Assembly: GCA_043739785.1 (NCBI GenBank)
Contig: JAYUDN010000001.1
Location: forward strand, 37,392-101,391
Direction: 5' to 3'
Source: Candidatus Altimarinota bacterium
GTDB lineage: Bacteria > Patescibacteriota > Gracilibacteria > BD1-5 > UBA2023
DNA: 64,000 bases
Translations under genes and position numbers: made by a program
Shown here: positions 1,324-45,865 of the stretch, one piece after another
Numbering within the stretch: position 1 is the stretch's first letter
How the letters are laid out: every line of letters begins with the position of its first letter
Notes under the pieces: generated by a model
What the model was told of the DNA's origin: nothing
The model's database searches: none
The model's input: only the letters and a program-made list of their open reading frames with translations

Positions 1324-2319
1324 CTAATCTTTATTCGCGCTCTGTGCATTCATCACCTTATAAAAGAGCTGAGAAATCGGGTTGAGAACATTTCGAAGGT
1401 TTTCTCTGAGATCCAGGTAGTCACTCTGGATAAACTGGAGTAGGAGGTGGACCGAGTAGGTTCGCTCCATTTCGACGAAGGCCGTGATAGCGACGGGATA
1501 GGTACGTTTTGCGGAAGTGACTTCGCTCGCAATGTCTCGATTCATCTGGTCGAGCTGAAAGGCGACCTGAGCGGTATCCTTGGGACTCAGTGGCGCGGTG
1601 GAACTGATCGCTCGGAAGTCATTCATCTCTTTTTGCACCTTAGAAAAGTCGAGGTTTACATTTTTCTGGAGGTATTCGAGGTAGTATCGATAGTTGCAGT
1701 ACTGGTAAGAAGCCGTATCGAGGAGGCGAAGGCGCATCGGGATCGGGTTATTATTACTATCGACGACTTCGGTATTGCCATTGCAGGTCTGAAGCAGCTT
1801 ACGTTGATTCTCGAGCTTCGTGTTGAGTCCCTTGATTTTTGTAATAATCTCTGAATTTTTGTTTCCGAAGGTTTCATTGACCTGTACTACTTTCTCCGCT
1901 ATCCGTATCCTCGAAGAGAGCATCGCACAAGCAAAAACCGAGTTCATCTGAGAATTGTAGATCCCACGAGAAAGGCTCAATATATCGAGGGAGTAGTTAC
2001 TAGTTGGTGGTTGGTAGACTGGTTTTCCAGTTTTCTGGACATACTGTTCAAGGGCGATCTTCTTTTCTTCGACGGATGCAGAACTCATCTGGGGGTAGAC
2101 GACATTTGGACTATCGATGATCGCCGTCGAGAGCATCGAACCATTCGATATATTCCATGGAGCGAGTCCTTCTGGATCTTGCTTCATGCAGTAGTAATTC
2201 ACATTTTTCTGATAACAACCATAGGTGATATTCGCTTCATCAGTACAAGGCTCCGCGGCGAAAATACTCCTCGGGAGGAGTGCTACAATTATGAGGATGA
2301 AGGGGAGGAGGTACTTCAT
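1324..2319 (-). CDS. Secreted hypothetical protein, last gene of the T4SS-like block
   Basis: 331 aa with N-terminal signal peptide MKYLLPFILIIVALLPRSIFAAEP. Its start lies 2 nt downstream of the stop of the ATPase gene. Confidence 0.6.
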   Translation of the reverse strand: MKYLLPFILIIVALLPRSIFAAEPCTDEANITYGCYQKNVNYYCMKQDPEGLAPWNISNGSMLSTAIIDSPNVVYPQMSSASVEEKKIALEQYVQKTGKPVYQPPTSNYSLDILSLSRGIYNSQMNSVFACAMLSSRIRIAEKVVQVNETFGNKNSEIITKIKGLNTKLENQRKLLQTCNGNTEVVDSNNNPIPMRLRLLDTASYQYCNYRYYLEYLQKNVNLDFSKVQKEMNDFRAISSTAPLSPKDTAQVAFQLDQMNRDIASEVTSAKRTYPVAITAFVEMERTYSVHLLLQFIQSDYLDLRENLRNVLNPISQLFYKVMNAQSANKD

Positions 2320-2320
2320 A

Positions 2321-4744
2321 CTAGACGGCTCAGATACGGTAAATAATCTCTTTTTCTACAAATTCTCGTTCCCGACCATACTTCAGTCGAGAGAGTTCCT
2401 TGAGGGCGGCACCGATGGTTGGATCTCCTTTCTCGAGCCATGGACGAGGGACCGAGAGGCTAAATCCCTGGGATGGTTGTTCGTCGATAGAGAGGCGCAT
2501 CGCCGCATTGAACTTATCCATATTGAGAAAGTCCTGTTCAGAATAGAGAGGGGCAAACTGCTTCGCCATAAACTCGGCATCTTCTGGACCGATCTTGTAG
2601 CTCATCATCGTCCCGACGTTTCCGAAGATGGCATCCTTGAGGTTTAGCTGAGACTTCGTGAGGGCGTCAGATTTCTGAAGCTGACCGAGGTACTGGTGGG
2701 CTATGACGAGACCGAGTCGATACTTTCGAGCTTCTGAAAGGATAGACTCGATACTGTCGGTGACATAGTTCTGGAACTCATCGATATAGAGGAAAAAATC
2801 CTTTCGGAGCGTCTTGTCCATATTTTGTCGACGCATGGCGGCTATCTGTATCTTCGAGACGAGGACGAGTCCGAGCAGGGTCGAATTGAGGTCTCCGATA
2901 ATACCCTTCGAAAGCGAAACGAGGAGGATTTTTTCGTTATTCATGATATCTTCGATGTCGAAGGCACTTTTCGTCTGTCCGACAATATTTCGCATCATCG
3001 TGTTCGTGATGAACTGACCAAACTTCGCGGCAAAGTAGGGGATAATCTCCGCTTTTTCACGGTCTCCCATCTTCGCATAGGTATAATCCCACCAAGAACG
3101 AACAATCGGGTTTTTGAGAGTGGTGCGTCGTTCTCGCTGGAAGTTCTCATCAGTAAAGAGTCGTATGAGGTCAGTGATGGCTCATCCTTGAGGATAGTCG
3201 AGGAGGGTAAGGCATCCATTTCGGAAGTAGTCCTGGATTCGAGGACCGAATATCTCATTTCCGAAGAGTTTGATCATGATATTGGTAGCGTCGCCGACGA
3301 CCATCTGTTTCTCATCTTCACTTTTTGCCTCGAGGAGGTTGAGTCCCATAGGACGGCTCAGGTCTCCAGGATCGAAGTAGACGAGGTCCTCAGCTCGTTC
3401 GCGAGGGATGAAGTCGACAAGTCCTTTGGCGAAGTCACCATGGGGATCCATGACCGCGATACCTCGACCAGTGCGAATGTCTTGGCGAGCCATCACCGAG
3501 AGGATAGATGACTTTCCCGTACCGGTTTGTCCGATGACGTAGAAGTGTCGAAACCGATCTTCATTTTTCATATAGATCGCCTTTCGTTCGCCACGAAAGA
3601 TATTTTCTCCGAGGTAGAGACCTTCCTTCCCGACATTGATCGGCGCCTTGAGCACTTTGAACCGTTGCCAACGAATCTCAGGTTGCTTGTTGTACTTCGA
3701 GTGCGGAAAGTGAAAGAGGGTGGCGATTTCTTCACTATTGAGAACCGGAGATCCCTGCCACCAAGCGAATTGTCGGAAGATATAGTGTCTTATAAGGAGG
3801 GAAAGGGACTTTCGTTTGACGGGCTTGAACCGATTATAGGCCGGAGAGGCAAACTGAGAAAATGACGAAATAATATTGCCAAGCTGTCCATCGACATCGA
3901 CAGGATCATTGCCCGTGGTGACAATACGGATCACCATCGTGTATCCTGTTTTTTTTACTTTTTCTTTCATAAGGCCATCATCATCGATCGGTTCGGCTTC
4001 ATTTTCTTCTGGCTTGGATCCTCCTTTTTCCTCGTCTTGTGAACCAAATATCTCGATAAAACTCATAAGCCACTCGAGTGGATTCCATGAAATATACGAG
4101 TGGTGTCATTTCTCAGATTTTTTGATCTTTTTCTTAATACGCTCTTGCCAGTCATCATCGACGGGGCGCAAAAGGATCTGGATGGCACTGGATTCATCGC
4201 TTGAGAGCTTCGACAGCGCCGAAAGAATTCCATTCATACTATCCGTTTCGAGTTTCTGATAGGTACGTATCGGGAATGCGTAGGGTTTCTTGAGCTTCAT
4301 CATCTCTCCTCTGACGACGGATCGAGATTCGAAAATATTGACCTCTTCCGTCTCTTCGACGAACGCATCTGGATAGAACCCGACAATTTGTTTTTCTACG
4401 AGGTTCCGCGAGTGCTTCGGCACGACAATATAGAAGTAGATCTCACTCCCATGAGCGACATATTCGAGCGAAATATACTCTTGCCCGAGTATCCATCCCT
4501 TGATATTTCATGCATAGAGGTACTTCAGAGAGGCAAGGAGTTGTTCCATAATCGAGATCTGTTCACGAAAGTCCTTGATCGTTTCTTTTTTCTCATCAAG
4601 ATCACTATCCTTTCTGGCCATTGTGACACGGAGAAAGACCATATTGAGGGATCGCTTCAGATTCACCTTCCGACGTAAGTAGATAAATCAGAGGGTTAGC
4701 GCTATGACGGTCGAGATGATATAAAAAAGGAGTTCCGAGAGCAT
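2321..4744 (-). CDS. VirD4/TraD-like (T4SS coupling-protein-like) P-loop ATPase, membrane anchored, 807 aa
   Basis: Track ORFs 2330..3070, 3182..4066 and 4106..4423 share one frame and join through TGA codons at 2330, 3182, 4106, 4508 and 4688. N-terminal TM segment MLSELLFYIISTVIALTLGFIYL; Walker A GQTGTGKS; DPHGD; Walker B-like LYIDEFQN. True stop is TAG 2321-2323. Confidence 0.75.
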
Positions 4745-4777
4745 TCGAGACGAAGGTAATATAGGGGAGAAGGTACT

Positions 4778-5746
4778 TTAGCCCTTGAGGATAAAGAATC
4801 GAAAAATAGCATGACTTCCGACGAGGAGGATCAGACCGAGTGCGATATAGATAATCGTTCCCTTTGCTTTTTTGAGTTTTTCCTCATCTCCGGCAGATAT
4901 GAGGACGAGCCATCCTGCGTAGATAATAAGAATCACGGAAAGAAGCGCTAGAAACCCATTGAGGTAGTTCACAAAGTTTCCAAATATTCCGAGTGAGGCT
5001 TGCACATTGGGATCCTTGATCGCACAGTCACCAATAGTGACGAGGTTAAACGGTCCTACATTTTTACAGTCGGGCTGACCATAGACGAGTCGTATGAGCG
5101 TTTCTGGGATGCGTATGAGGATGAATCAGATGATACTGTAGATGAGGGTATTTTTTCATTTTTTGAATTTCTCCTCATCTCCACCACCGGTGACCATCGT
5201 GTAAAAAGCAAGAATCGACATCGCGATAAAGCCAAAGGCCGCGAGCATCTGGAGTACCTGTACAAATGGAGAAAAGATATTTCTCCAGAGTTTTCCCCCG
5301 AGTCCAGACCCGATGACTTCCGTAACGTCTCCGAGGATAAGCGTCGTCCATACCGTGTAGGCCACCTGCATCAACAGGATCCCGAGGGATACCCAGAGGA
5401 TATTTTGCCGCCATACCTTCACCTTCTCTTCGCTCGCATCGGAAAGGAGGAGCTTCATCACTCAGACGAGGAGAAATACCAGCGCGATAAAGATAAAGAA
5501 ATTCTTCACATTGTAGGCTATCACGACGACGAGGTCAGTGATCCCCTCGCCACCACCATTTCCAGGTCTGATAAAGGAAGCCAGGAGGGGACCGACAAAT
5601 TGTTCGAGGGTATCATTTCCCTTCCCGCTGTTGTTGACGACTCATCCACGAACATTGAGGGTGGCGTCATCGAGCGCCCAGACAGAGGGCGAAAAAATAG
5701 AAAAAAGTGAAACCAAGAATAACAATACGAGGAGAAGTTTTCGCAT
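4778..5746 (-). CDS. Triple tandem T4SS-pilin-like (TrbC/VirB2-type) fusion protein with signal peptide, 322 aa
   Basis: Track ORFs 4778..5005 and 5156..5461 are in frame and join through TGAs at 5126, 5156, 5462 and 5645. Signal peptide MRKLLLVLLFLVSLFSIFSPSVWA. Three repeats of TM - (S/G)(D/G)(A/D)(S/E)EEK.K(K/V) - TM. Confidence 0.7.
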
Positions 5747-5846
5747 AGAGGGAATTTACATAGATTCATTATATCTGAAGCCGGCGCGGAACGCAAATAT
5801 ACTGCAAAAAATTGTTGAACCTCAGGAGTTTTCCCGGCTGAATTTT

Positions 5847-8465
5847 CTATTTTTTTGTTGTAGGGATATTTTTCTTCTCATCTAATGGTTTTTTCTGAGA
5901 TCAAGAAGCACCGATTTCTCGCTCTTGGGCTCGTTTTTCTTTCATTTTTTCTTTGTACTCCATCTGCTCGGTATGGTAGCTTTTTTCTTCTTCAGAAATC
6001 TTGTGGGCGAAGTCGAAGATTTTTTTCTCGACAAATTTTCGATCTTTGGTGTATTTTTCCCGACTGACCCGCAGGAGGGTTTCTTTCGATTGTTCTTCCT
6101 TCACCTCGGTACGCTCATGCAGTGGACCAAACGTCGTCGCCGAGTAAACGGGAGAAGGCATCCCGTCGATCAGGAGCTTCGTATAGATATCGTACTTTCG
6201 AAGGTTGGTCAGGTCATGTGGGGTGATAATATCCTCTCCACCATACACTTCCGAAAGGGTCACCGCATCATGGTGTCAGACCTGAAAGGAGACCAGGGTT
6301 CCCACATTTCCAAATACCGCATCCTGAACCGTCTCCGGCATCTGAGCGATGTATTGGTTCGCCATCGTCAGAGAGAGCTTATACTTCCGAGCCTCTGAGA
6401 GGATGGTCGCAAAAGAATCGGTCGCAAAGTTCTGGAACTCATCGACATAGAGCCCGAAGTCACGTCGATCCTTCTCGGGAATATCCGCTCTGGTCATCGC
6501 TTCGATCTGGAATTTCGTGACCATCATCGCTCCGAGGAGAGCACTCGCATCTTCCCCAATTCGCCCTTTTGAGAGGTTCACGATAAATATCTTCCCATTG
6601 TCCATAATCCAGCGGAGGGAAAATGGATTTTTGGGCTGACCGAGGATATTGCGAAGGAGGGGCGAAGAAAGAAACTGTCAGACTTTGTTGAGAATCGGAT
6701 TGACGGCTTCACTCATCATGCTCGGACTCATAGCTGCAAATTCTCGTTCCCAGAATTGCACAAGGATAGGATCTGGAAGCTTTGCTACTATTTTTTTCCG
6801 GTACGATTCATGGGTGAGAATAAGTGGGATCGAGATAAGGGTCGTATCAGGGATGAATAGGAGCGTGAGGATCGTATTGCGGAGGATATACTCGAGTCGT
6901 GGTCCCCAGCTTTCCGCAAACATCTTCTTGAAGATAGACACGAGTCCACTCGCGACAATCGACCGAAGTTCGGGATCTGGATTATCGAGCATATTGAATC
7001 CAATCGGAAACTCTTTGTCAGATGGATCAAAGAGGACAATGTCATTGGTCCGAGATTTTGGAATATGCGCGAGGATGGTATCCGCGAGATCTCCATGGGG
7101 ATCGATAAGACCCACACCTCGACCCGAGAGGATATCGGAGTAGATCATATTTTCGAGGAGGGTTGACTTCCCCATACCGGTTTTTCCGATGATGTAGACA
7201 TGGCGGGCACGATCTATCGGCTTGATACCGAAGGGGATATCGGCCCCTCGAAAATTGGTATGACCCAGGGGGGTATGTGGGATCGAAGCATCGGGAAGGT
7301 TGTGAGGAGGCTCGAACCGACGGGTGAGGACCCAGTTAATCCCAGGAGTTTTCACATAGAGGGTCGGCATATGGACGAGACCCGCAAGCTCTACGGTATT
7401 GAGAATATGGGTTGGTCTTGGCTTCTGAGCTCGAAGGTGTTCATAACTCATCGAGGTCACTCATGATTTCATCGAAAAAGCATTTCCACCAGAATGGGAA
7501 AATATATTCATAGCTCCGGAGAGCTCCCTGAGGAGGAGACGGTCTTTGATTTCTTCCTTCTTTTCGATAGCGATAGCGACAGAGGTAGCGTATCCATACG
7601 TATCATTCTTTTTATCGATCGGTATTTTTTTATCACTGTGGTTGTTTGACTCCAAAGATTCCTCACTTTTGACTGTCAAAAACGAAAATATCCAACCGAT
7701 AACGAGGAGGGGAAAGAGGATGACTCTCAACCACCACCAGTTTCAGAGGATCCATTTCTTCACAAAGTCGGGGAAGATATGCGATGATCGAATACTGAGC
7801 ATGAGTGATTCTCTCCAAGAGTCTTTCACGGGGACAAAACCTATCTGAAGGAATGCAACCTCCTGTTTGGGAAGTTTGGTGAGTGCAGAAGTGATGCTCG
7901 AAAGGGGATCGATGGCGTCTTTTTCACTTCGATCCTTGAGTCCTCCATAGAGTTTGATCGTCGTGTTATCGGTATGTTCGAGGCGAACTGGCTGAACGAG
8001 GAGGATACTTTTGGTATCTATCAGGGGCTCGGTTCGAGAGATTTCAATATCTGGATAGTGGGCATAGAGCTGGCTTTCGAGAAATCCTGCAAATTCCGCA
8101 GGGGTATGCATAAGGAAACGAATGCGACCATCGCGGTGTATAATCTCGAACTGAAAGAGAGGAAACGGGCTTTTTTTCCAGAACTGCCACCACGGGTGTT
8201 TTAGAGAGGCTACATGATGGAGCGTCGAAAGCATCTGGGAAGCGACAAAGACTCACTTCTCATTCATACGATCAACCGCAATCTCGAGGGTAATGGGAGT
8301 TCCATCAGGTATGGTCGAAGCACCCAGTGTATGTTGTTTGAGATCTTCCCCGAGACTTCCCCCGCCAGAAGATTCCTCATGCCTCTGATACTTTCTCTGT
8401 GCCGAAAAATGATGTGGTTTCATGGAAATAACAAAAAAAGCAATATCTTCCGATGATACTATCAT
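5847..8465 (-). CDS. Second VirD4/TraD-like P-loop ATPase, 872 aa (paralog of 2321..4744)
   Basis: Six track ORFs (5901.., 6276.., 6678.., 7461.., 7743.., 8253..) share one frame and join through TGAs. Walker A GKTGMGKS; DPHGD; LYVDEFQN. N-terminal FQFEIIHRDGRIRFLMHTP...YAHYPD domain, then TM segment WWWLRVILFPLLVIGWIFSFL. Stop is TAG 5847-5849. Confidence 0.75.
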
Positions 8466-8616: not shown

Positions 8617-9285
8617 ATGAATCCTATACAAATCCCATCAGAGTGCGATACTATTACCCTTCAGTCTGCGGTTTATATCGATACCTCACCATCAGAATCT
8701 ATCGATATCACCATTGGCGACGGGATAGCATGCTCCTATTTTTTATATAATACTGGAGGCGCTAAGAAGCGGACCTTTTCGCTCGCTTCCGGATCTCGGA
8801 TCGAACTACGAGGCATTATTATATGAACAAATGTTGAATCACAATTGTCATTTATCATAGAATGAACAAATATTAAAGCCCATATGGATATCCTTGCTTT
8901 TGCCAAAAACGATGCAAAACTCGTGGTAAAAGGAAATGCCACTGTCCTCCCAGGATCTCGAGAGGTCGATGTCCGTGTAGATCAGACGAATATCCTAGTC
9001 GGGACGAATGCACAGGTTCGTGGTTTGCCCATCCTCGAAGTGGCTACTGATGACGTCATCGGGGGGCATAGCTGTAAGATGCATCGAATTTCATGAGAAG
9101 GACTTTTCTACCTCGAATCGCACGGGATCGATACGAAGCATGCGGAGATTATGCTCATACAGAGTGAAATCTGGAAACGACTCCAGATTCTCCAAGGCAC
9201 GGAAGAGGCAGCCCAGTTCTGTGCCGAGATTTTTGATCAGCTTCGAGAGGGAAGTAGTATTATGACACCAGTTTGAGGAGTATAG
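8617..9285 (+). CDS. Short SufB/SufD-family (FeS assembly) protein, 222 aa
   Basis: 8617..8826 and 8884..9096 join through TGAs. ILEVATDDV.GGHSCKMHRISGEGLFYLESHGID...AE.ML resembles the SufBD C-terminal motif. Confidence 0.55.
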
Positions 9286-12351: not shown

Positions 12352-13485
12352 ATGTCCTACGATCAGTTTGCTACCACATTCTCGAAGAGTCGGAAACACC
12401 ATCCTTGGCCAGAATTGGACGCTATTATTTCCGATATCCAATCCGAGGGATATATGAGGGTGCTTGATGTCGGGTGCGGTAACGGAAGGCTCCTCGAAGA
12501 GTGGTTCAAAAGAAGCGAAGCAAAACAAGGTTTGAATTGAGAACAAGAAAACCCCCCGTCGAAGGGGGGCAGGGGGATACGGGGTTGGTATGCTAACTCG
12601 AATCAAGCTATTCCGTATGATAGAAAACTCCTGGAAAAAGCGAAAGAAAATAGAAAATCTGGAAATCCAGTAGAAAATGCTTTTTGGTTTACTATTCTGA
12701 AATCTGAATCTCTTAAAAAATATAAGTTTACTCGACAGAAGCCACTTCTGACTTATGTAGTTGATTTTTATTGTTCCGAACTCTGATTGATTATCGAGCT
12801 CGATGGGGACTCTCATACTACTCAGATTTTATATGATCAAAAAAGAACCGAGGAACTAGAAAAGTACTGACTTTTTATCCTCAGATTTTCGAATCAAGAT
12901 GTGATGTTGCGGCCAGAGTGAGTATTAGAGAATCTACTTGAATGCATTCGACAGAGAGAAAGTTACCCCCCTCCCCCCCTTGGAAGGGGGGTATCACACC
13001 CATATACTTGAAATTGAAAAGAAGCTTTAGATATTACATATCTCTGAATCGATAATTCAGTCGGGATGATTAATGAAGCTAGAAAATGCCATCCTGGATA
13101 TGATTTCCGAGTTATTGAAATGGCTCAACTTGAAAACTTGAAAACTTGAAAACTTGAAAACTATGACGCTATAGTCTTGTTGGCATCTTTCCATCACCTC
13201 GAAACCGAAGCAGAGCGACTGACCGTATTGTCATCGCTTCGGAAAATGCTTTCACCACACGGACGAATCTATATGACGAACTGGAACCTGCTCGGGCAGC
13301 CTCGATATGAAAAAAGTCACCGAGGAAATGGCGACTTCGATATCAAGATCGGGGAATACATTCGATACTACCATAGTTTCCAGATCGAAGAGCTCCAGAC
13401 ACTTTTCGAAAAATCTGGATTCAGTATTCGAGAACATAGAATATTTGAAGGAGGAAAAAATATTTTCTCTATCGTAGGATTATAG
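12352..13485 (+). CDS. Class I SAM-dependent methyltransferase carrying an in-frame DUF559 endonuclease cassette
   Basis: Motif I VLDVGCGNGRLL lies upstream and LGIDNSVGMINEARK plus LLASFHHL downstream. One uninterrupted code-25 frame covers 377 codons. 12253..12540 and 13177..13485 are in the same frame (924 nt apart). Confidence 0.7.
12541..12995 (+). mobile_element. DUF559 (Vsr-like endonuclease fold) cassette with GC-rich hairpin ends, inserted in frame
   Basis: IPYDRKLLEKAKENRK...AFW..L......YKFTRQKPLLTYVVDFYCSEL(G)LIIELDGDSH...YDQKRTEELEKY(G)LFILRFSNQDV. Flanked by cccccc-gtcgaa-gggggg (12552..12569) and cccccc-ttggaa-gggggg (12974..12991). Confidence 0.7.
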
Positions 13486-14838: not shown

Positions 14839-15195
14839 GCTTCATCCCGTAGTTTCAACATGGATTCATTTCTATAGGAGTGAAATGAATCTCTATCTGA
14901 GCCGGATTATATGAATATGTCACAAAAAATCAAAACTATGTCATTCTACTCCTGAGCTGAGGAACCATTCTAAAAAGAGAACAGATAAGCCGAGAAAGTC
15001 GAAAAATCTATCTTTGTTTTAGTCTATCAGATTCTAGGAAGGAAAGCAAGATAATTAGGAAGGATAGAGTAGAACAAGGCTTGATCCTTCCCATGAAACA
15101 AGTTTAGAGTCAGAATGTCAAAGCATTCATCTTATTCAGGTGGGTAGACTATATCGGTAAGTATTTTGGGATTTGGAATATGCGCAAGAAATCAC

Positions 15196-18100
15196 CTATT
15201 TCCCTATGGTGATCGATTTCCCTGCAGTGCGACCGAATACCTCTGGGTGGTAGAATTCTCCGATACGAGAAGGTCGAAGTTCGTAGGTTCAGACATGTGT
15301 GGGTCGGTAAATATACGTGAAGGTATAAATACCCGCATCGAGCCGTGCGACGGTACCGAAGTATCGATCATCCTGCCACTCCTCATGGTCGAAGAGAGGA
15401 TTCATCGTTTTACGAGAAGTGGGTGCACCATCAGAATACATACCATCGCTTGATGGAGTTGTATTTGCGGTCGAAGTATTCACTACATCTTGAGACTCCG
15501 TCTTGAGATTCGGATTCACGAGCTCAGCCCCAGCTGGGATAAATCCTTCAAACGCGACCTGATCACGAGGCTCTGCAGCGATCATACGGTTATACACGAT
15601 GACGAGTTTTCCAACCTTCGGGGAGGTGAGAGGAGTGAGGTAGGTGGTGATATCTTTCGGATATTTGAGTTCAGTAAAGAGGATATCTCCTTTGAGGTAT
15701 TGAGCCCATTCTGTAGCCTTAGCCTTCTCTATAGCCTGATACTCAGCATAGTCATAGGAGGTTGATTCGAGAAAGAATCCTTCATCTCGGGCAGGAATCC
15801 CGCTCGCCTTCAGCGCATAGGTCATGGAAATATCGTAGTAAATCCGACCCGTTCCTGTTTTCTGGAATTGGAACTGTGAGACATCCTGGAGATTCGAAAG
15901 TAAGAATCCAGTGGAGAAGGTTTCGAGTCGATTCGAACCATCGATAGTCTTTTTCTCGAGCAGGTTTCCGTCGAGAGAAAGTGTAGATTCAAGCTTCGTA
16001 TTCCGAATATCCCCAGTTGCTCGTTCCATCGTAGTTATCGATCGGATGACGTCCATCGTATCGAGGGTAGACCCAAAACTTCCGTCTTTTTTCTTCTGAC
16101 TCATAACCCACCGACTCATCTGGTCGAGTACGGTTCGATTTTCGGAGAGGGTATCACCACCCAAGAGGGTCACGAGCTCGACAAAGCTCAGGGTATTGGT
16201 CAGTCGAGAAGAACTATCAGATCGTCCGATAAAGGATCCTCGAGGATTGATAACAACTCCTTCGCTGCTGATTTTTTTGACCGTATCTTTTGCTTGATTG
16301 AGAAGCGATTTTTTATCCTTCTCAGCCACCGCATTGAGTGTGGTCAGCTTCACCAGGAGGTGGGCATGGGCGAGCGAGAAATCGACCCCCCGATCATAGA
16401 CCTCCTGAGTGTTCGTGAGGTACCATCCATTTGCCATATTTTTGGTATCGCTTACAAGGAGTTGGTACATCTTGTAGGCTTCATAGTCATCTGGTGTGGC
16501 ATCGAGGACTCAGGCAATCATCTCGAGCCGCTCAGGGACTGAGTAACCACAGTTGGTGATACAATACGGTCGATTATTCTCATAAAATGTATCCTTGATA
16601 TACTTCGCAGCCTTTGGTAAAACATCTGGTGGAAGCGTGAATCCAACTCGTTTGAGGTCCTGGAGCCGAGATACGACCGTAAGGGTGAGAGGGAGGGATG
16701 ATATTTCAGAGTCTGTCCAGTAACCGAATCCCCCGTCATATCGCTGGTAGGAAGTCACTCCTCCTATCACTTCTTGTATCACATCTTTGAGAGAAACCTC
16801 GGTGTATCAGTCTTCTTTTGAGTTATAGCGCTTCAGCATCTTCGTCGAGAGATCATAGGGGATCCCGATGCTGTCGTAGAGCTCCTTCATATAGACCTGT
16901 GGCATAATAGCGGCGAGTTTCTGCTCGATGCAACCATACGGATAGCTTGCAAGAAAATCCATCCCTGAGAGGAGTCCAGGAAGGAGGGTTCCAGCATAAG
17001 AAATAGCGAGGGATCATCCATTCTCACGGATGGCACGCTCGAGCTCTATGAGTTCAGCTGCTTTGGGGTCGGCTCGACCACTCGTCGCAACCGTTTCACT
17101 GGTTGTTGTCTCGATAATCGGGATTGTCATTTCTATAGTATCTTGATCGCCGGTCGTACGAGAAACGGCTTTGATCGTGATCTTCGAGGCCCAAGTCGAG
17201 AGATTTCGCACTTTTTCGATGGAGTCAACTACGAGTTCAAATGGCACCACGACTTGAGCTCAGGCCTTGATTTCGACTGATTTTTTTGGGCTCTGAATTG
17301 TGACATGGTTAGCCTCGACCGTGATATCAAAGGTGGCATCTTTTTCTGTCTTATTGAATACAACCGGAGCTATTACTACAGTGTCTGCGGTCCCGAGGAA
17401 TCTCGGAAGGTTATCATTGATAAGGACACTTTTCGAAGTCTGGATCTGAGTAGTACCAACACCGAACTGATTCTTTTTGGTATTGATCAAGGCTTCGATC
17501 ACCCACGTCGTGAGGTTATCTGGAAGGACGGGCGTCGTGATAGTGAAATTTCCACTCTGATCCGTCGTGAAGTCCGATTGCCAGAACGCTGTATCCTTGA
17601 ATACTCAACGTTTCTTTTTCGAGAGTCCTCATTTTTGTCCATCACCGGCTCCTCATTTTTCTCCGAGTGATGTATCCTTTACTTCGAGTTTTTCGACGAG
17701 GTTGAGGAGAGAAGTATAGGTGATGACTCCGAGGTACCGCTTCATGTCGTAGAAGTAGGCAAATGGATTCTTGAGTGGATTCCCAGCGAGCGCGAGGAGG
17801 CTCTCATCGACGATCGAGAGACTTCCATTGGCTCATGCGAGTACTTTCCCTGCCGCATCTTTCACATTCACGGTAATCTTCACGGGTTCTCCAGGAAGAT
17901 ATTTTGACTTCGAAGCACTTACGGTTACAGCGAGTTTTTTCGGATCCGGGAGTACTTTGACGACGGCGAGTGCCCGCTTGTAGATCGGGAGTTTTTCTCA
18001 TGGATTCTGCCCAAGAGCAAAGACTTTGACATAGACATTTGGGATATAGGTATCGAGTATCGGGAACTCGATGCGTACGGTCGTGCCGGTGATATCCTGG

Positions 18101-21100
18101 ATATAGGAGTTCAGGATTCCATCATCTTTTTCGATACTGACGAGCATTTTCCCCGACTGAATTGGAGTTTTGAGAGTAAACCCAGCTCGATCTCCGACGG
18201 AGAGGAGAGTGGCATCAGCGGTGAGATCAGCGATCGCATTGTTTCACTCATACCAATACGTCTCATCATTTCCAGAGACATAGATGTACGTACTCGAAGT
18301 GAAGCCGACATGATTTGATCCGGTGTAGGTGGCTTGTATCTCATACTCTCCCCCGGTAGCTGAGAGAAAGGTAGAGCTAAACTCCCCCCGAGCGTCCGAG
18401 GTAGCAGTATCGGTCGATATCACTGTTTCCTCGAGTGCTCATTCGTTGTAGAAGACCCCGTCGACCCCTTCCTTCTTCACATTTTTCCATTCCCGTTTTA
18501 TGAGCGTGAGTCATACAGTTTTTCCAGCGAGTCACTTCGCAGCAGGGTCGAGGACGACTCCACTGAGTTTCACGCCTTTTTTCCCACTGCTCCAGTACGG
18601 AGCCATAATCCCTACGTATCCATCGGTGGCGTGGACGATCTGACTCACGGAGGTATTGACCGTTTTCTTGGTGTCTGGATCGGTCACTTCGAGCGAGTAG
18701 GTATAGATACGCTCACCGGTCGTCGATCCTACATCGTACTCGTGGTGGATGATCGTATTTCCGAGCATATCGAGCGTTCCGGTTCCACTCGATTCCATCA
18801 CATCTTGGTAGTTGCACGAACCCCAATAGAGACAATCCGAATAGGCAGAGCCCTGAGAAAAGGTATAGTTGCTATAGCCCTGAGGATTGAAGTAATAATT
18901 CTGTGATAAAAGCGAATACTGATATTCCGCTCCACCGAGGGCACCACCGAAGTAGTATTCCGCGTGTCCTGGGATATCGACACTATCCCCCACAAAGACA
19001 TCAGACTTTGGCACCTCACTCGATACTTTGAAGACTGGTTTTTTGTAGGCATCGATGAAGAATTCCCCATTATTATAGACAGTGTAGGAGTTCCCATATT
19101 CATCAGGAATATCGAGTTCGAAGGTATATCGTCCGAGTGGGGCGGTCTTTGGGAGGATGAACTCGCCATGGAAGTTCGAATTGGCATCGATGGTGATATC
19201 CATATCGGCAATAGTTACCGGTCCCGATTCACTTCACTCTGCTCAGAGGATCTTGATCTTTCACTTTCGAACTGCTGATGGAGCGAATCCGTCAAAGTGA
19301 AAATTACGGAGGATCCCCTTGAAGTACACCGTGTCAGCGGGCTTATAGAGCGGTCGATCCGGATATATATAGAGGTAGTCACGGTCTGAGGCATCCTGAC
19401 CAGAAATATACTTGAAGTCATAGTTTGAGGTCTGATCTTGGTTTATGTTTAGGACTCCATAATAGGTAGCGTTTTTCGCGACGATAATATCGAGGAGCGC
19501 ACCCGTACTAGTTATTTTGTACACCCTTTTGCCGCTATCGTAGACTATCGGAGGCTTGGCCATGGTGTCATAACTATTTTTTTCAGAACTCCAGCGATAG
19601 GCCGTGAAGGTAAGATCTGATGGTATCGTCTTCCCATCATAACTCGACGCGAAGATGATGCGACTATTATTCCCATCCTCGAGCGTGAGGGAGAGATTCG
19701 ATCGGATAAACGTGTGGTAAAATGACTGTTGAATTTGTGGGTCGGCCCCATCGAGGTATCCATGGATATAGACATAGGGCTCGGTAAATGTTTCTCAGAG
19801 GACTTCTTTCTCGAGGTCTACCTGCGTCGGAGTCACGGTCCAGTATCGATTTTTGAGGGGTATTTTCTTGGATACCTCTTTGATACAACGTGGATTTGGC
19901 GGAGAATTATAAGAATTTGGTAGGTTTTTTTGTCTGAGAAGGTCAATATATCCCGCTTCATCCATCTCACAGACATCGATATTGGTCATATCGGTATTGA
20001 CCGAGAGGAGGCCGAGCACGATCGGTAGTGAAGAAGGGATAACCTCTGTTTGATGTCACTCGGCACTACCGTAGAGGTATCGATCATTCGGTGCAGTCGG
20101 TCCGGTCTTCACGGTAAATGAACCCTTTTTCGAAAGCTCTTGACCGTACTCGTCAGTCAGTGATGGGAGAAAATCTATCCGATAGGAGAGTGATGGATTC
20201 AGCCTTAGATCGACGATATACGCATTTTTTCCGCCTATCTGAGGACAGGTGTAGGTTTTGGTATAGTTTTGTCCAGCGGCATTCCATATGTCGTCACCTC
20301 GGTCATAACGAAGCGTCGGTGCTTTCGAGGCAGGAAGCGTCACTATACTTGACCCCGATCAAAGTCTGGTATCAGGCGTATAGCTATAGTCATAGTATTC
20401 GTCGCGGCCGAGGATCTTATTGTTCGTATAGACACATCCGAGTGTATTCGAGAGAAGGCTCAATCCAGAAACGACCAAAGCGGATGCCGTTCGGAATCCG
20501 TAGGTCTCATCTTGAATGAGGGCGGAATTTGCCTTTTTGGATATGATCACTTCGTAGGCTGTATCCTGTTTGAGCGGGTACTTCGGAGTGATCTTGAGTT
20601 GTTGTTTATTGTCCTCTTCTCAGGTAATATTCCCTTTCGCATCGTACGTACTCATCTTCGCATAGGCTATACTCGACTCGATCGGAGTATGATCTTTCTC
20701 CGTTCGCACCGTGAGAAGCGTGGGGTCAAGTGGGACGACTTGGTCGAAGGAAACGAGGAAAAAGAGCTGCTCACTCGGGAGGAGTCATGCAATCATATCG
20801 TAGCTTCTGGTATCAGTGAGCATCCCCGAACTATCTTTGATATTCTGATAGGCTCCAACAGTTGCATACGCTGAGGTATGCATTGATTTTTGCACCTCTT
20901 GACCGAGGGATTCGGTTCCATATTTGGGATGTAGAGTGGTATGAACGACGAGCGAATAGTCGGTACTATATATAAAAGGGTGGTCTTTCGGTGTGATCGT
21001 AAAATGGGTCTCGCTCGAGCTTCCATCTTCGTTTTTTACTGGAGTAACCATGATCCCTATACGACTGATGGTTCCACTAGCTCCACTATTCCCACCTGAT

Positions 21101-21969
21101 AATTCAATAGCTCCGGACAAGCTCTCAGCGGTTACTGGGAAATTGGTCGAGAGAGGTATCCCTGTATATGGAGAAAATGTATCCGGGATTCGAACCTGAA
21201 GTGCGGTCGTCATGATCTCACTCGTTAGTACCTGAGTCAGTCCATGAAGGAGGCCTGAAATATCTGCCACTTGCATCTGGTATCGTGTGGCTCACTGGAG
21301 CGGTGTCGTCGGGATGAATTCGAGGATACTCGTGTTGGTCCAGACACATCTTCCTTCGATATGAGGAGTGATGGTGAGCGGACAAGGAAGCGTATCTCGC
21401 TTATCGAGATTGGTGAGCGGTACCATCGGCGTATTGAAAACGACGGTGATATTTTGACTCAAGGTATCAAGTGATCCAGTCGGGAATATTTTCACGGCTT
21501 GAGCTCCTGGCGTTGCCACGAATGTCACGGTTTTATCCTTTCCGAGAGGAGTACCATCTGATTTCTGTACGGTCGAAGCGACGGTGAGATCGTAGGTTTC
21601 GCCCGTTTCGAGGGATTTCGAGAGCGTGTATGATATCGTCTTCGCATCAGCACCGACACTAACTTTCCCATCGACGTGAGGGGAAAGGGTGACGGTCTCG
21701 GGAGTGATCGATCCGGGAGTGACGCCCGAGTCGAGGGTCAGCGTCAGGACCTTCGTATTATACGGGATCTTCCCAGTATCCTCAGAAATCTCCTGACTCG
21801 CTCATGTCGGACCTTCCTTCCCTATGCCTCCGAGCGAGGGAAGTGATGGGGCATACATCCACCCTACGACTCCGACCATCCCGAGGAGAACGAGGAGTGA
21901 AATGATTTTCCAGTGGGCTCAGATACTTTCTAGAAATGATTTTTTCGGAGAGGGGGTTGCTTCTGTCAT
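15196..21969 (-). CDS. Alpha-2-macroglobulin family protein, membrane anchored, 2257 aa
   Basis: At least 11 track ORFs (15289.. to 21292..) all share one frame and join through TGAs. N-terminal TM segment WKIISLLVLLGMVGVVGW. Thioester-type motif YPYGCIEQ (CIEQ codons at 16921..16932). FKDTAFW and YQRYDGGFGYW. The C-terminus reads through TGA 15289 to TAG 15196. Confidence 0.8.
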
Positions 21970-41501: not shown

Positions 41502-42557
41502 TTAGAGGTCGAGAAGTTCAGTACGATCTTTGTCTCGCATATAGCGGAGGGCATCAGATTTTTCGACGATTCATCGTCGGTAGATGTCGATGATCGCGTC
41601 ATCCATGAGCATCATCCCATCCTTTTTCGAGATTTCGATCATCGAGTACATATGCTGGGTTTCTCCGCGGATGATGAGATTGCGTATGGAGTCGTTATTG
41701 ATGAGTACTTCTCTCGCGGCAATCTGCCCCGTCCCATCCCGCTTCGGGAGGAGGGCCTGAGAAATAACGCCGATCATCGAGAGGCCAAGCTGGATGCGAA
41801 TCTGTCCTTTGGATTGCTCGGGAAATGACTGGATGATACGATCGATCGACTGTACGGTATCATTTGTATGGAGGGTCGAGAGGACGAGATGCCCTGTTTC
41901 TGCGAGGGTGATGGCGGCTTCCATGGTCTGGATATCTCGCATTTCTCCGACGACGATCACATCTGGATCTTCTCGGAGGATACTCCTGATCCCGCCGAGG
42001 AAAGTATCGAAGTGCTTCCCATACTCTCGCTGATGGATGAGACACTCCTTATTCTCATAGGTGAACTCGATCGGGTCTTCGAGCGTGATGATGTGTCGAG
42101 GACTATTCTGGTTGATGTACTCGATCATCGCGGCCATTGTGGTGGACTTTCCACTTCCAGTCGGTCCCGTGATGAGGATGATTCATTTCTCCTTATTCGT
42201 GAGGTCGAGGAGGTGTTGAGAGAGGCCGATGGACTCCGGACTCGGGATCGTACTCGGAACCATACGAAGGGAGATACACCATCCCCGAAGGACTCGAGAA
42301 ATATTGACTCGAAACCTCGCATCTTCGAAAGCATAAGCGGTATCCACTGATTTCACATCGGAGGGTATTTCTTTCGGGTAGATAAATCGGATAATATCCT
42401 CGATATCCTCGAGAGTTAGTTTCCCGAAAGCAGCAATCGGTTTCAGTTTCCCATCATGAATCCGGATATACGGGAATCCGGTCGTCGTGATGTGGAGGTC
42501 TGAAATATTTTTTTTGATGAGTTCTCCTACGAGGGATTCAAACTTTCCGAGTTCCAT
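41502..42557 (-). CDS. pilT: Type IV pilus retraction ATPase PilT-like
   Basis: (G)IILITGPTGSGKSTT, ITLEDPIEF, VGEMRD and STLHTN. 41571.. and 42183.. are in frame. The start is placed at MELGKFESLV. Confidence 0.8.
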
Positions 42558-42645
42558 AGATAAAAAAATTACTCTTTCAGGATACCATATATCTCCAGGG
42601 AATGCAAAAAATTGACTTTCCGAATCTGCGCAATACACTTTTTCC

Positions 42646-43275
42646 ATGAAATGTATCATCTGACTCGGAAATCCAGGGAAAAACTATCAACATACTCGAC
42701 ACAATGTCGGGTTTATGATGATAGACCAGATTGCTGAAAGGTATGGCGATGGAGTATGGAAGGATTCGAAGTTCCAGGGAGTGGTTTCGAGTTGAGAGTT
42801 TCCTGTTTTCAGTTGAAAAAAACTTTTATTGGATTCTACAGGTGAATGAATGGAAAGAGCTGTGAATGGACAACCAACAGCTCAAAACTCAAAACCCAAA
42901 ACCGAAAACTGTCTCCTCCTGAAGCCTCTTACCTTTATGAACCTCTCAGGGCAGTCGGTCGCGAGCCTGGTACACTTCTACAAACTGGATCCGAAGACCG
43001 ATATTCTCGTCATCGCTGATGATATCGATATGGCATTCGGAAAGGTTCGATACCGGGCAAAGGGGAGTTCCGGAGGGCAAAATGGACTCAAGTCCATCAT
43101 CGAACATCTCGGGACGGACGAATTCGCTCGGATCAAAGTCGGGATTGGTCGGGATGATCGCTTCGCCGTGAGTGACTGGGTTCTCTCGAAGTTCACGAGT
43201 GAAGAAATGAAAATACTCAAAGAAGTCGTATTTCTGGAGGTTCAGTCAAAAATAGATGAATGGATGGAGGGGTAA
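42646..43275 (+). CDS. pth: Peptidyl-tRNA hydrolase with an internal insertion of about 32 codons
   Basis: MKCII(G)[39 protein letters not shown] and VGIGR. The N-terminal part is only recovered by reading TGAs at 42661, 42793, 42814 and 42847. Confidence 0.85.
42784..42910 (+). repeat. Heptad-array-bounded segment inside pth
   Basis: Left: gtttcga|gttgaga|gtttcct|gttttca|gttgaaa (42784..42818). Right: ctcaaaa|ctcaaaa|cccaaaa|ccgaaaa (42881..42908). The two arrays are in inverted sense. Confidence 0.7.
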
Positions 43276-45049: not shown

Positions 45050-45865
45050 ATGAAAATAAAAATCTTCTTATTTTTTCTTGCTTTGTTCAGTATGTCCACT
45101 CTATTTGGCGCTACTCCGAATTGTGGGAGTAACTACTGTAATAGAATCGACAATCTTCCTAAAAACCTTACCCCTCTTACTCCAGCTGGAGAGGCTTATA
45201 TTAGAAGTCTAAAAGACGTAGTAAAACCAGATTGATCGATAGATGCCCAGGCATTACAAATTGCCCTACAAGCAAATGATAAAAGTATTATCGTCGACAA
45301 TAAATTCTGAGACAATACGATTACTGCTGCAAATGAAGCTGGAAAAACCTGAATTATAAACGGTACACTTAAGCCCCTTCCTAGCTGAGATACGAGTCCT
45401 CTTCCGTCCTCATGAGGGCCAATTACATTAGATCCAATTACCTGATCACCAGTTTCAGGATGAGGAGGAAATACTCCCAAAAAAGACTCGATGGTTATTG
45501 TTACAGAAATAATACCTGGAGCTGACTGTAGATGTGATGTAGATTGAGATCCAAATTATGCTCAAAAGTGAGCTTGTACTTCAAAAACTCCTGTACCTGA
45601 AAGAAAGTATCGTTGTTATATCCCACCTGGCTTTTCTAGCTTTCAGATGATTCTTGCCGAAATTATTCGCTATGTAGTATACACATCGATGCTTCTTGGA
45701 GTCCTCGCTCTTACGGTGATGGGAATCCTCTGGTCGATCGCTGGAGCTGATGAGCCGAAAGTGAAGGCTATGAAGGGATGGTTTATCAATATCATCATCG
45801 GACTCACGATACTCTTTTTCTTCCGAATCATCCTCTCCTTCCTCGCACCTTGGATATTCCAGTAG
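45050..45865 (+). CDS. Secreted Cys-containing protein with a C-terminal T4SS-pilin-like domain
   Basis: Signal peptide MKIKIFLFFLALFSMSTLFG. About ten in-frame TGAs. The C-terminus TM-AGADEPKVKAMKG-TM (track ORF 45647..45865) has the same motif layout as the triple pilin at 4778..5746. Confidence 0.6.

Follow-up and report, generated by a model that had tools for sequence, protein, structure and literature searches.

What kind of machine is encoded by a block of genes in which two ATPases resembling type IV coupling proteins (T4CPs) flank a pilin gene, with no other canonical part of a type IV secretion system (T4SS) beside them? The block in question occupies positions 1324-8465 of a 64,000-nucleotide stretch of DNA, hereafter the window (contig C1, positions 37392-101391), from the genome of a Candidatus Altimarinota bacterium (assembly of 1.38 Mb in 50 contigs, 93.7% complete). 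An earlier interpretation made from the letters of the DNA (the sequence-only reading) had suggested that it could be a minimal, self-contained apparatus for DNA uptake or cell contact, specific to these episymbiotic lineages. Its placement of the block as T4SS-related, chromosomal and belonging to a Candidate Phyla Radiation (CPR) lineage stands, whereas self-containment and lineage specificity do not: we conclude that the block is probably one locus of the dispersed, chromosomal, non-conjugative T4SS/pilus system already known from Patescibacteria.

Reading TGA as a sense codon raised the summed length of long open reading frames (ORFs) in the window from 12.9k to 47.6k amino acids (aa), and translation with table 11 was rejected, as it breaks the block genes into a mosaic of short ORFs. 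Code 25 (TGA = Gly) was used because contig C38 encodes a tRNA(UCA) with an acceptor stem like that of tRNA-Gly and unlike that of tRNA-Trp, and because the TGA codons of both ATPase genes fall in Gly-rich alignment columns. Under this code four genes follow one another on the minus strand, encoding ATPase B (5847-8465, 872 aa, with a true start that may be further downstream), the pilin (4778-5746, 322 aa), ATPase A (2321-4744, 807 aa) and a secreted protein, SEC (1324-2319, 331 aa). The intergenic gaps B/pilin, pilin/A and A/SEC measure 100, 33 and 1 nucleotides, respectively, and to judge from these sizes pilin, A and SEC probably form a single transcription unit; a promoter and terminator scan of the block returned no more sites than shuffled sequence.

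No VirB4, VirB6 or VirB8-VirB10 was found in the block, in the flanking genes of the window or in 20 kb of DNA left of the window. The absence of these proteins, part of the sequence-only reading, thus holds for the block and its flanks; that of VirB4 does not hold for the genome, where contig C3 carries a VirB4. The block itself sits among housekeeping genes, with tRNA-Leu (about 500 bp away), a SufBD-family (SufD-like) gene and Era as neighbours and RlmH, SufB, SufC and BipA further leftward, and the G+C content of the region is not deviant. A complete T4SS lying just beyond the window was rejected, the 20 kb to the left and the right side being occupied by housekeeping genes. The VirB4 on C3 is a 643-aa ATPase of the FATA type (C3:9113-11044; NF045971, the CD1110 family, 362 bits vs a cut-off of 325; P-loop_TraG match, 3e-24), within the gene order 510-aa ORF, ATPase paralog C, SpoIIE phosphatase, VirB4, 137-aa ORF. 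Searching the genome by tblastn yielded two further paralogs of A and B, namely C (C3:4892-7864, 990 aa) and D (C34:12733-14943, 736 aa). Of the four, A, B and D are encoded at loci other than that of VirB4, flanked by housekeeping genes. In a quick IQ-TREE run, on which all clade statements made here are based, A joins C in a short (type 1) clade and B joins D in a long (type 2) clade, with support of 81-83 for the placement of B and D. VirB4, at 75-97% identity, is far more conserved than the T4CP-like paralogs. The genome also holds 16 pilin domains in 12 ORFs (PF18895-type, detected with our own hidden Markov model, HMM), and a self-contained minimal apparatus is difficult to reconcile with a genuine VirB4, two more paralogs and so many pilin domains elsewhere.

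The history of the block was read from 31 relatives within the order, all of which carry 3-6 ATPase paralogs, by annotating 60 neighbourhoods with our own HMMs. A pilin gene on the same strand adjoins 20 of the 29 C-type loci (immediately downstream), 5 of the 15 A-type loci (immediately upstream), 5 of the 6 short type-2 loci of family f3 (a single pilin upstream) and none of the nine D-type loci. Beside C-type loci the pilin is a triple one, and its best match in our genome is the window pilin; the nine C-type loci that lack it show C-SpoIIE(-VirB4) instead; in genome G015 a single cluster has the order C-pilin-radA-SpoIIE-VirB4. Placement of a pilin upstream of A was seen in five genomes (G000, which is that of the window, G005, G014, G003 and G010). 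As for the remaining genomes whose C-type locus lacks a pilin, the short flanks fetched beside A gave no pilin hit in G006, G008 and G009, while G001 yielded no ortholog of A. Because the pilin ortholog follows a C-type ATPase in relatives, together with VirB4 in G015, we regard the block as a relocated piece of a VirB4-linked system, the simplest history being one in which the pilin gene left the VirB4-linked cluster for the A locus, and did so only in the clade of the window. Enrichment of pilin genes beside these ATPases has a nominal P ~1e-34, uncorrected for shared ancestry; the loci being phylogenetically related, the adjacency is conserved synteny rather than a set of independent events. 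We found no report of pilin genes directly beside T4CP-like ATPases of this order in the literature searched, and an order-specific wiring of multi-domain pilin genes to such ATPases may be new.

The loci of C and D have further distinctive neighbours. The SpoIIE/PP2C phosphatase between C and VirB4 (C3:7871-9085, locus L002) has two N-terminal transmembrane (TM) helices, and the order C-SpoIIE-VirB4 occurs in seven genera (the window's own, G000/G001, and those of G003, G005, G008, G009, G010 and G014), with at least C-SpoIIE in G006; the phosphatase may belong to the T4SS as a regulator. D-type ATPase genes are flanked by arrays encoding paralogous proteins of 540-650 aa (C34:9775-11739 and 15005-16633; C3:46988-51456; loci L060, L062, L063 and L067 in relatives), up to five copies in G016, for which we found no signal peptide, TM helix, or Pfam or NCBIfam family. 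These proteins could be substrates or effectors of the T4CP-like ATPase.

The window pilin consists of a signal peptide followed by three tandem VirB2-like T4SS_pilin domains according to our own HMM (residues 74-136, 157-220 and 254-318, at 5339-5527, 5087-5278 and 4793-4987 on the minus strand), each made up of a TM segment, a charged GDEEK loop and a second TM segment. Pfam resolves two of them, and the pilin fusion recognised in the sequence-only reading is real, with three domains rather than two. The best NCBIfam name for the protein is the Mbov_0395 family (47 bits vs a cut-off of 40). Another pilin-domain protein mentioned in that reading, at 45050-45865 (plus strand, 271 aa), is also real and VirB2-like, its C-terminal pilin domain following a region of about 200 aa and scoring weakly in Pfam (E=1.2e-5) and at E=2e-10 with our own HMM; it counts among the 16 pilin domains of the genome and is not linked to the block. 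Between 9 and 16 pilin domains per genome were counted in 30 of the 31 genomes searched in the order. A second triple-pilin gene lies at C9:10860-11768 (L005) of the window's genome, and in family f2 (L040, L051, L057, L058 and L073) a C-type ATPase gene is followed by two triple pilins and a single pilin, an array of fused pilins. At C23:12908-18346 (L007), a VirB2-like pilin domain (about residues 108-170) stands at the N-terminus of a protein of about 1812 aa, which could be a pilin-anchored giant surface protein.

ATPases A and B share 31% identity over 770 aa (E=1e-112), which makes them true paralogs, and what had been proposed of them, two VirD4/TraD-like paralogs of 807 and 872 aa, is borne out under code 25 in lengths, relatedness and T4CP matches in Pfam. 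Both carry the catalytic motifs expected of the FtsK/HerA superfamily, Walker A (GQTGTGKS in A, 3509-3532; GKTGMGKS in B, 7164-7187), DPHGD (3434-3448 in A; 7089-7103 in B) and Walker B (LYIDEFQN in A, 2768-2791; LYVDEFQN in B, 6429-6452), all on the minus strand, and Walker A, DPHGD and LY(I/V)DEFQN are invariant across 55 family members from four paralog classes. The common layout once suggested, an N-terminal domain ending in YP(D) and followed by a TM helix and Walker A, was not recovered: YPD is found in mid-domain (residues 124-126 of A and 137-139 of B), and the sole TM helix of A is its N-terminal anchor (residues 5-23, 4676-4732), with none ahead of Walker A. B lacks an N-terminal TM helix and has an internal hydrophobic hairpin (residues 239-267, 7665-7751), where A is disordered, so that neither protein has the canonical T4CP membrane domain of two TM helices directly before the nucleotide-binding domain (NBD). 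A exceeds the Pfam gathering cut-offs of T4SS-DNA_transf (34.2 vs 20.1) and TrwB_AAD_bind (24.3 vs 20.5), B that of TraG-D_C (29 vs 22), and both that of DUF87/HerA, whereas with the NCBIfam equivalogs TraD, VirD4 and CD1115 the scores did not exceed 62 bits vs 250. The best sequence matches in the PDB were TrwB, the best solved relative, and IcmO/DotL. A and B are predicted to be membrane-associated, hexameric ATPases.

An AlphaFold2 (AF2) model of A built on the 55-sequence alignment (pLDDT 84.8) shows the N-terminal TM helix, then an N-domain of alpha/beta type (residues 35-345, 3710-4642) with a disordered loop at 213-252, and a RecA-like, T4CP-like motor (residues 376-770, 2435-3619) that contains an all-alpha insert (residues 476-602, 2939-3319). 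In Foldseek searches of the PDB, full-length A ranked TrwK/VirB4 first (E=2e-15 over about 900 columns, with a low global TM score), TrwB and Cag-beta aligned to the motor only (TrwB, E=2e-11, TMt 0.62-0.65, root-mean-square deviation 5-6 Å), and HerA was also among the matches. When the N-domain was modelled in isolation (pLDDT 83.2, pTM 0.81), all 14 matches with E<=4.7e-4 were TrwK/VirB4 chains (best 3.5e-6, prob 1.0), and the next match was unrelated. We therefore propose, with moderate confidence, that the N-domain of about 310 aa in these ATPases, B included, adopts a fold like that of the VirB4 N-terminal domain (NTD), placed on a T4CP-like motor. No mention of a VirB4-like N-domain in these ATPases was found in the Patescibacteria T4SS literature searched, and such a hybrid architecture, as modelled, may be new.

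The distribution of the family is far wider than the lineage-specific one envisaged in the sequence-only reading. In a sample of 201 genomes from 169 genera, spread evenly across Patescibacteria, it was present in every genome (201/201) and every genus (169/169), usually in 2-3 copies. A profile of the N-domain retrieved 5,192 representative clusters, whose proteins mostly measure 800-1100 aa and carry the domain around residues 40-400. In other classes the short (~840 aa) and long (~1000 aa) paralogs occur in tandem. A pilin between paired ATPases, as in the window, was not found in these other CPR classes, where a sigma-70-region-4-like gene occupies the gap along with a small ORF, although our pilin HMM may be insensitive outside the window's order. 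Public sources label members of the family as hypothetical or with a Pfam T4CP name, and its two-type, phylum-wide structure was not found in the literature searched; the existence of two ancient paralog types in a family universal across the phylum may thus be new. The gene in the gap, seen at loci L088-L091 (genomes G175, G193, G086 and G110), encodes a protein of about 340 aa with a sigma-70 region-4-like motif (…LSRERIRQIE…), is preceded by a gene for a protein of about 170 aa in G175, G193 and G110, and is possibly a dedicated regulator.

If the block is a locus of the dispersed system, its products would work as follows. A and B would operate with the FATA-type VirB4 encoded on another contig, and their VirB4-like N-domain would dock them on the membrane platform. 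ATP hydrolysis by A and B would pull the VirB2-like pilin out of the membrane and drive its polymerisation, the pilin being supplied by the three-domain precursor encoded between them. A and B might, in addition, load substrates into the channel where contact is made with a host cell. We infer this role in pilin extraction or substrate transfer; should both the docking domain and the coupling to the pilin be real, they would offer a testable model of how a VirB2-type pilus is built in a monoderm. The question matters because the T4SS belongs to the small number of machines whose necessity for epibiotic life has been shown in a cultivated Patescibacterium.

Several observations weigh against assigning the block to such a system. 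Over most of the phylum, the genes of these ATPases are remote from virB4 and have no pilin gene beside them, and no VirB6, VirB3/PrgI, TrsD or VirB8 was detected among the neighbours by the Pfam and NCBIfam models run. The adjacency of A and B is recent: the window, G005 and G014 are the only cases in which B was seen to adjoin pilin and A. The resemblance of the N-domain to the VirB4 NTD is structural only and of moderate extent (TMq 0.38-0.45 vs TrwK): PF03135 was detected in none of the 55 N-domains (Pfam at E<=10), and hhalign against the VirB4 of the same lineage gave a probability of 0.2 for the N-domain and matched nothing but the P-loop. Finally, a t4cp homologue in Southlakia is non-essential, while other T4SS genes are essential, and exaptation has been considered possible (PMC12102498); this non-essentiality agrees either with an exapted function that does not involve VirB4 or with redundancy among paralogs. 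A VirB4 signal was likewise not found in the sequences of A and B with TIGR00929 (13.7 bits vs a cut-off of 643). By hhalign and Pfam, then, no homology between the N-domain and VirB4 was found at the level of sequence, and the link between them is one of predicted structure.

A bolder version of the preferred reading, possible but doubtful in our judgement, would make the type 1 and type 2 ATPases an unrecognised class of T4SS ATPase, intermediate between VirB4 and VirD4, which is built into the membrane platform and powers the extraction and assembly of pilins rather than the coupling of substrates. Such a class, if it exists, would explain the wiring of pilin genes to ATPases in this order as well as the coupling protein that goes unrecognised in the T4SS cluster of Saccharibacteria, and might represent an evolutionary link between the VirB4 and VirD4 lineages.

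That the block encodes a reduced machine of its own, independent of VirB4 and serving DNA uptake or cell contact, we consider unlikely. The empty surroundings of the block (no VirB4, B6 or B8-B10 within about 20 kb on either side) would fit such a machine, as would the distance of these ATPases from virB4 across the phylum (PMC12102498) and the separable functions suggested by a non-essential t4cp within an essential T4SS in Southlakia, and ATPases endowed with a VirB4-like N-domain might replace VirB4 functions. However, the pilin gene ancestrally belonged to a cluster that also held a paralog and VirB4, and a CD1110-type VirB4, more conserved than the paralogs, co-occurs in 191 of the 201 genomes, nearly always elsewhere in the genome. 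In addition, the block lacks a channel component such as a polytopic VirB6-like protein, and a unit defined by the A-B pair would be restricted to three genera.

The chances are lower than that for A and B being DNA pumps of the FtsK/HerA/TrwB type, engaged in conjugation-like export or in the import of host DNA, with the pilus serving for contact only, a proposal that we judge improbable. It draws on the matches to TrwB_AAD_bind, T4SS-DNA_transf and TraD, on a weak match to the DNA-translocating ATPase CedD and on the structural matches to HerA, and CPR bacteria, being unable to make nucleotides, have to import them (PMC10633639). Yet every family match is far below its equivalog cut-off, and no relaxase or oriT-type gene was found among the neighbours scanned with Pfam, although no genome-wide search for relaxases was made; relaxases are rare in Patescibacteria (PMC12102498). 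In Southlakia, moreover, competence depends on ComEC and type IV pili, and the T4SS has no recognisable coupling or relaxase proteins (PMC10633639, PMC12857230). The weakest proposal, a decaying integrative conjugative element (ICE) beside tRNA-Leu with no cellular role, suggested by the proximity of that tRNA gene and by closest named families of ICE or conjugative-transposon origin (CD1110/CD1115 of CTn2, Mbov_0395), is hardly credible for four intact genes with invariant catalytic motifs, orthologs in 31/31 relatives, family members in 201/201 phylum genomes, a synteny with sufD common to several genera, a G+C content that is not deviant, and neither an integrase (window flanks and 20 kb to the left) nor a relaxase seen nearby.

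The last gene of the block encodes SEC, a Cys- and Tyr-rich protein with a signal-peptide-like N-terminus (residues 1-22), in agreement with the secreted protein expected there, and its start codon lies 1 nucleotide past the stop of A. Within family f1, A and SEC stay together as a gene pair, and the SEC family is confined to the window's order. A k-mer search returned three homologues only, and no relatives were found in Pfam, NCBIfam or the PDB, even with a 10-sequence profile. SEC is probably an extracytoplasmic accessory, for example a pilus-associated or adhesive factor.

Other features of the window and genome were recorded alongside the block. The PilT gene reported at 41502 was verified with TIGR01420 (376 bits vs a cut-off of 319; ORF under code 25, 41502-42659), and its candidacy as a hidden VirB11 was rejected, since it passes the PilT/PilU cut-off and reaches 48 bits vs about 250 with VirB11 models. 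A 2257-aa alpha-2-macroglobulin-like protein with Big_5, MG2, A2M bait region, TED and bMG10 domains is encoded at 15196-21969 (minus strand), a large investment for a 1.4-Mb genome. The gene at 12352-13485 (plus strand) encodes a DUF559 (Vsr-like endonuclease) domain within or fused to a class I S-adenosylmethionine-dependent methyltransferase, the insert being flanked by MetW-like residues 32-64 and the methyltransferase core (227-314). SufC and SufB (C1:31544-33697; L101:14153-16306) lie about 12 kb from the short SufD-like gene (222 aa, window 8617-9285), with several genes, tRNA-Leu and the T4SS block in between, and the sufD-B adjacency is the same in G005 and G014. Use of TGA for Gly differs strongly between genera within the window's family: orthologs of A alone have 25-42 in-frame TGA codons in G002, G011, G018 and G029, and no matched gene of G013, of the same family, has any.

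Much of the setting into which the block falls has already been described. A survey of 2,918 patescibacterial genomes found 5,713 VirD4-like T4CPs, only 148 of them near virB4, and VirB2-like pilins in arrays of 2-11 genes; in Gracilibacteria the T4SS parts are dispersed and VirB6 is undetectable (PMC12102498). The dispersed arrangement, the multiplicity of pilins and the missing VirB6 are thus published for Gracilibacteria (PMC12102498). In Saccharibacteria the T4SS and its pilins are essential, and the cluster has no recognisable coupling or relaxase protein (PMC10633639, PMC12857230).

Compared with VirD4/TrwB T4CPs (TrwB 1e9r, Cag-beta 8dol, DotL/IcmO 6sz9), the ATPases of the block share a RecA-like NBD with an all-alpha insert, Walker A and B motifs and DP(H/N)GD. 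They differ in the additional VirB4-NTD-like domain of about 310 aa that the model of A places between membrane anchor and motor, in having one TM helix (A) or an internal hairpin (B) instead of a two-helix N-terminal domain, and in the lack of a relaxase partner among the scanned neighbours, no search of the whole genome for relaxases having been made. With VirB4/TrwK of R388 (7o41-7o43, 8rtd) they have in common the two-domain layout of an N-domain and a C-terminal ATPase, but A and B carry no VirB4 signal at the sequence level, and a genuine VirB4 is encoded separately in the genome. For this VirB4, the paralogs (CD1115, weakly) and the pilin, the best named families come from systems of the mating-pair formation class MPF-FATA (CTn2 CD1110/CD1115; Mycoplasma ICE Mbov_0395/0397); unlike these, the genes described here are not on a mobile element, have no relaxase in view, are scattered over chromosomal loci, and have multiplied ATPases and pilins. 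By analogy only, the arrangement may also be likened to the rvh T4SS of Rickettsiales, whose genes are spread over several chromosomal islands and include duplicated components (PMC2653234, cited in PMC12102498); rvh, however, is of the P-type found in diderms, includes VirB6/8/9/10 and differs in which components are duplicated. The closest system is the chromosomal T4SS of Patescibacteria itself (Southlakia epibionticum SEML1_0006-0019, Wang et al. 2023; survey by Quinonero-Coronel et al. 2025), which likewise has a FATA-type VirB4, several VirB2-like pilins in a monoderm, no relaxase, a chromosomal location and VirD4-like T4CP homologues away from virB4, about two per genome. Here, by comparison, the genome has four such paralogs, the pilin is a single polypeptide with three domains instead of an array of separate genes, and pilin genes directly adjoin the T4CP-like paralogs.

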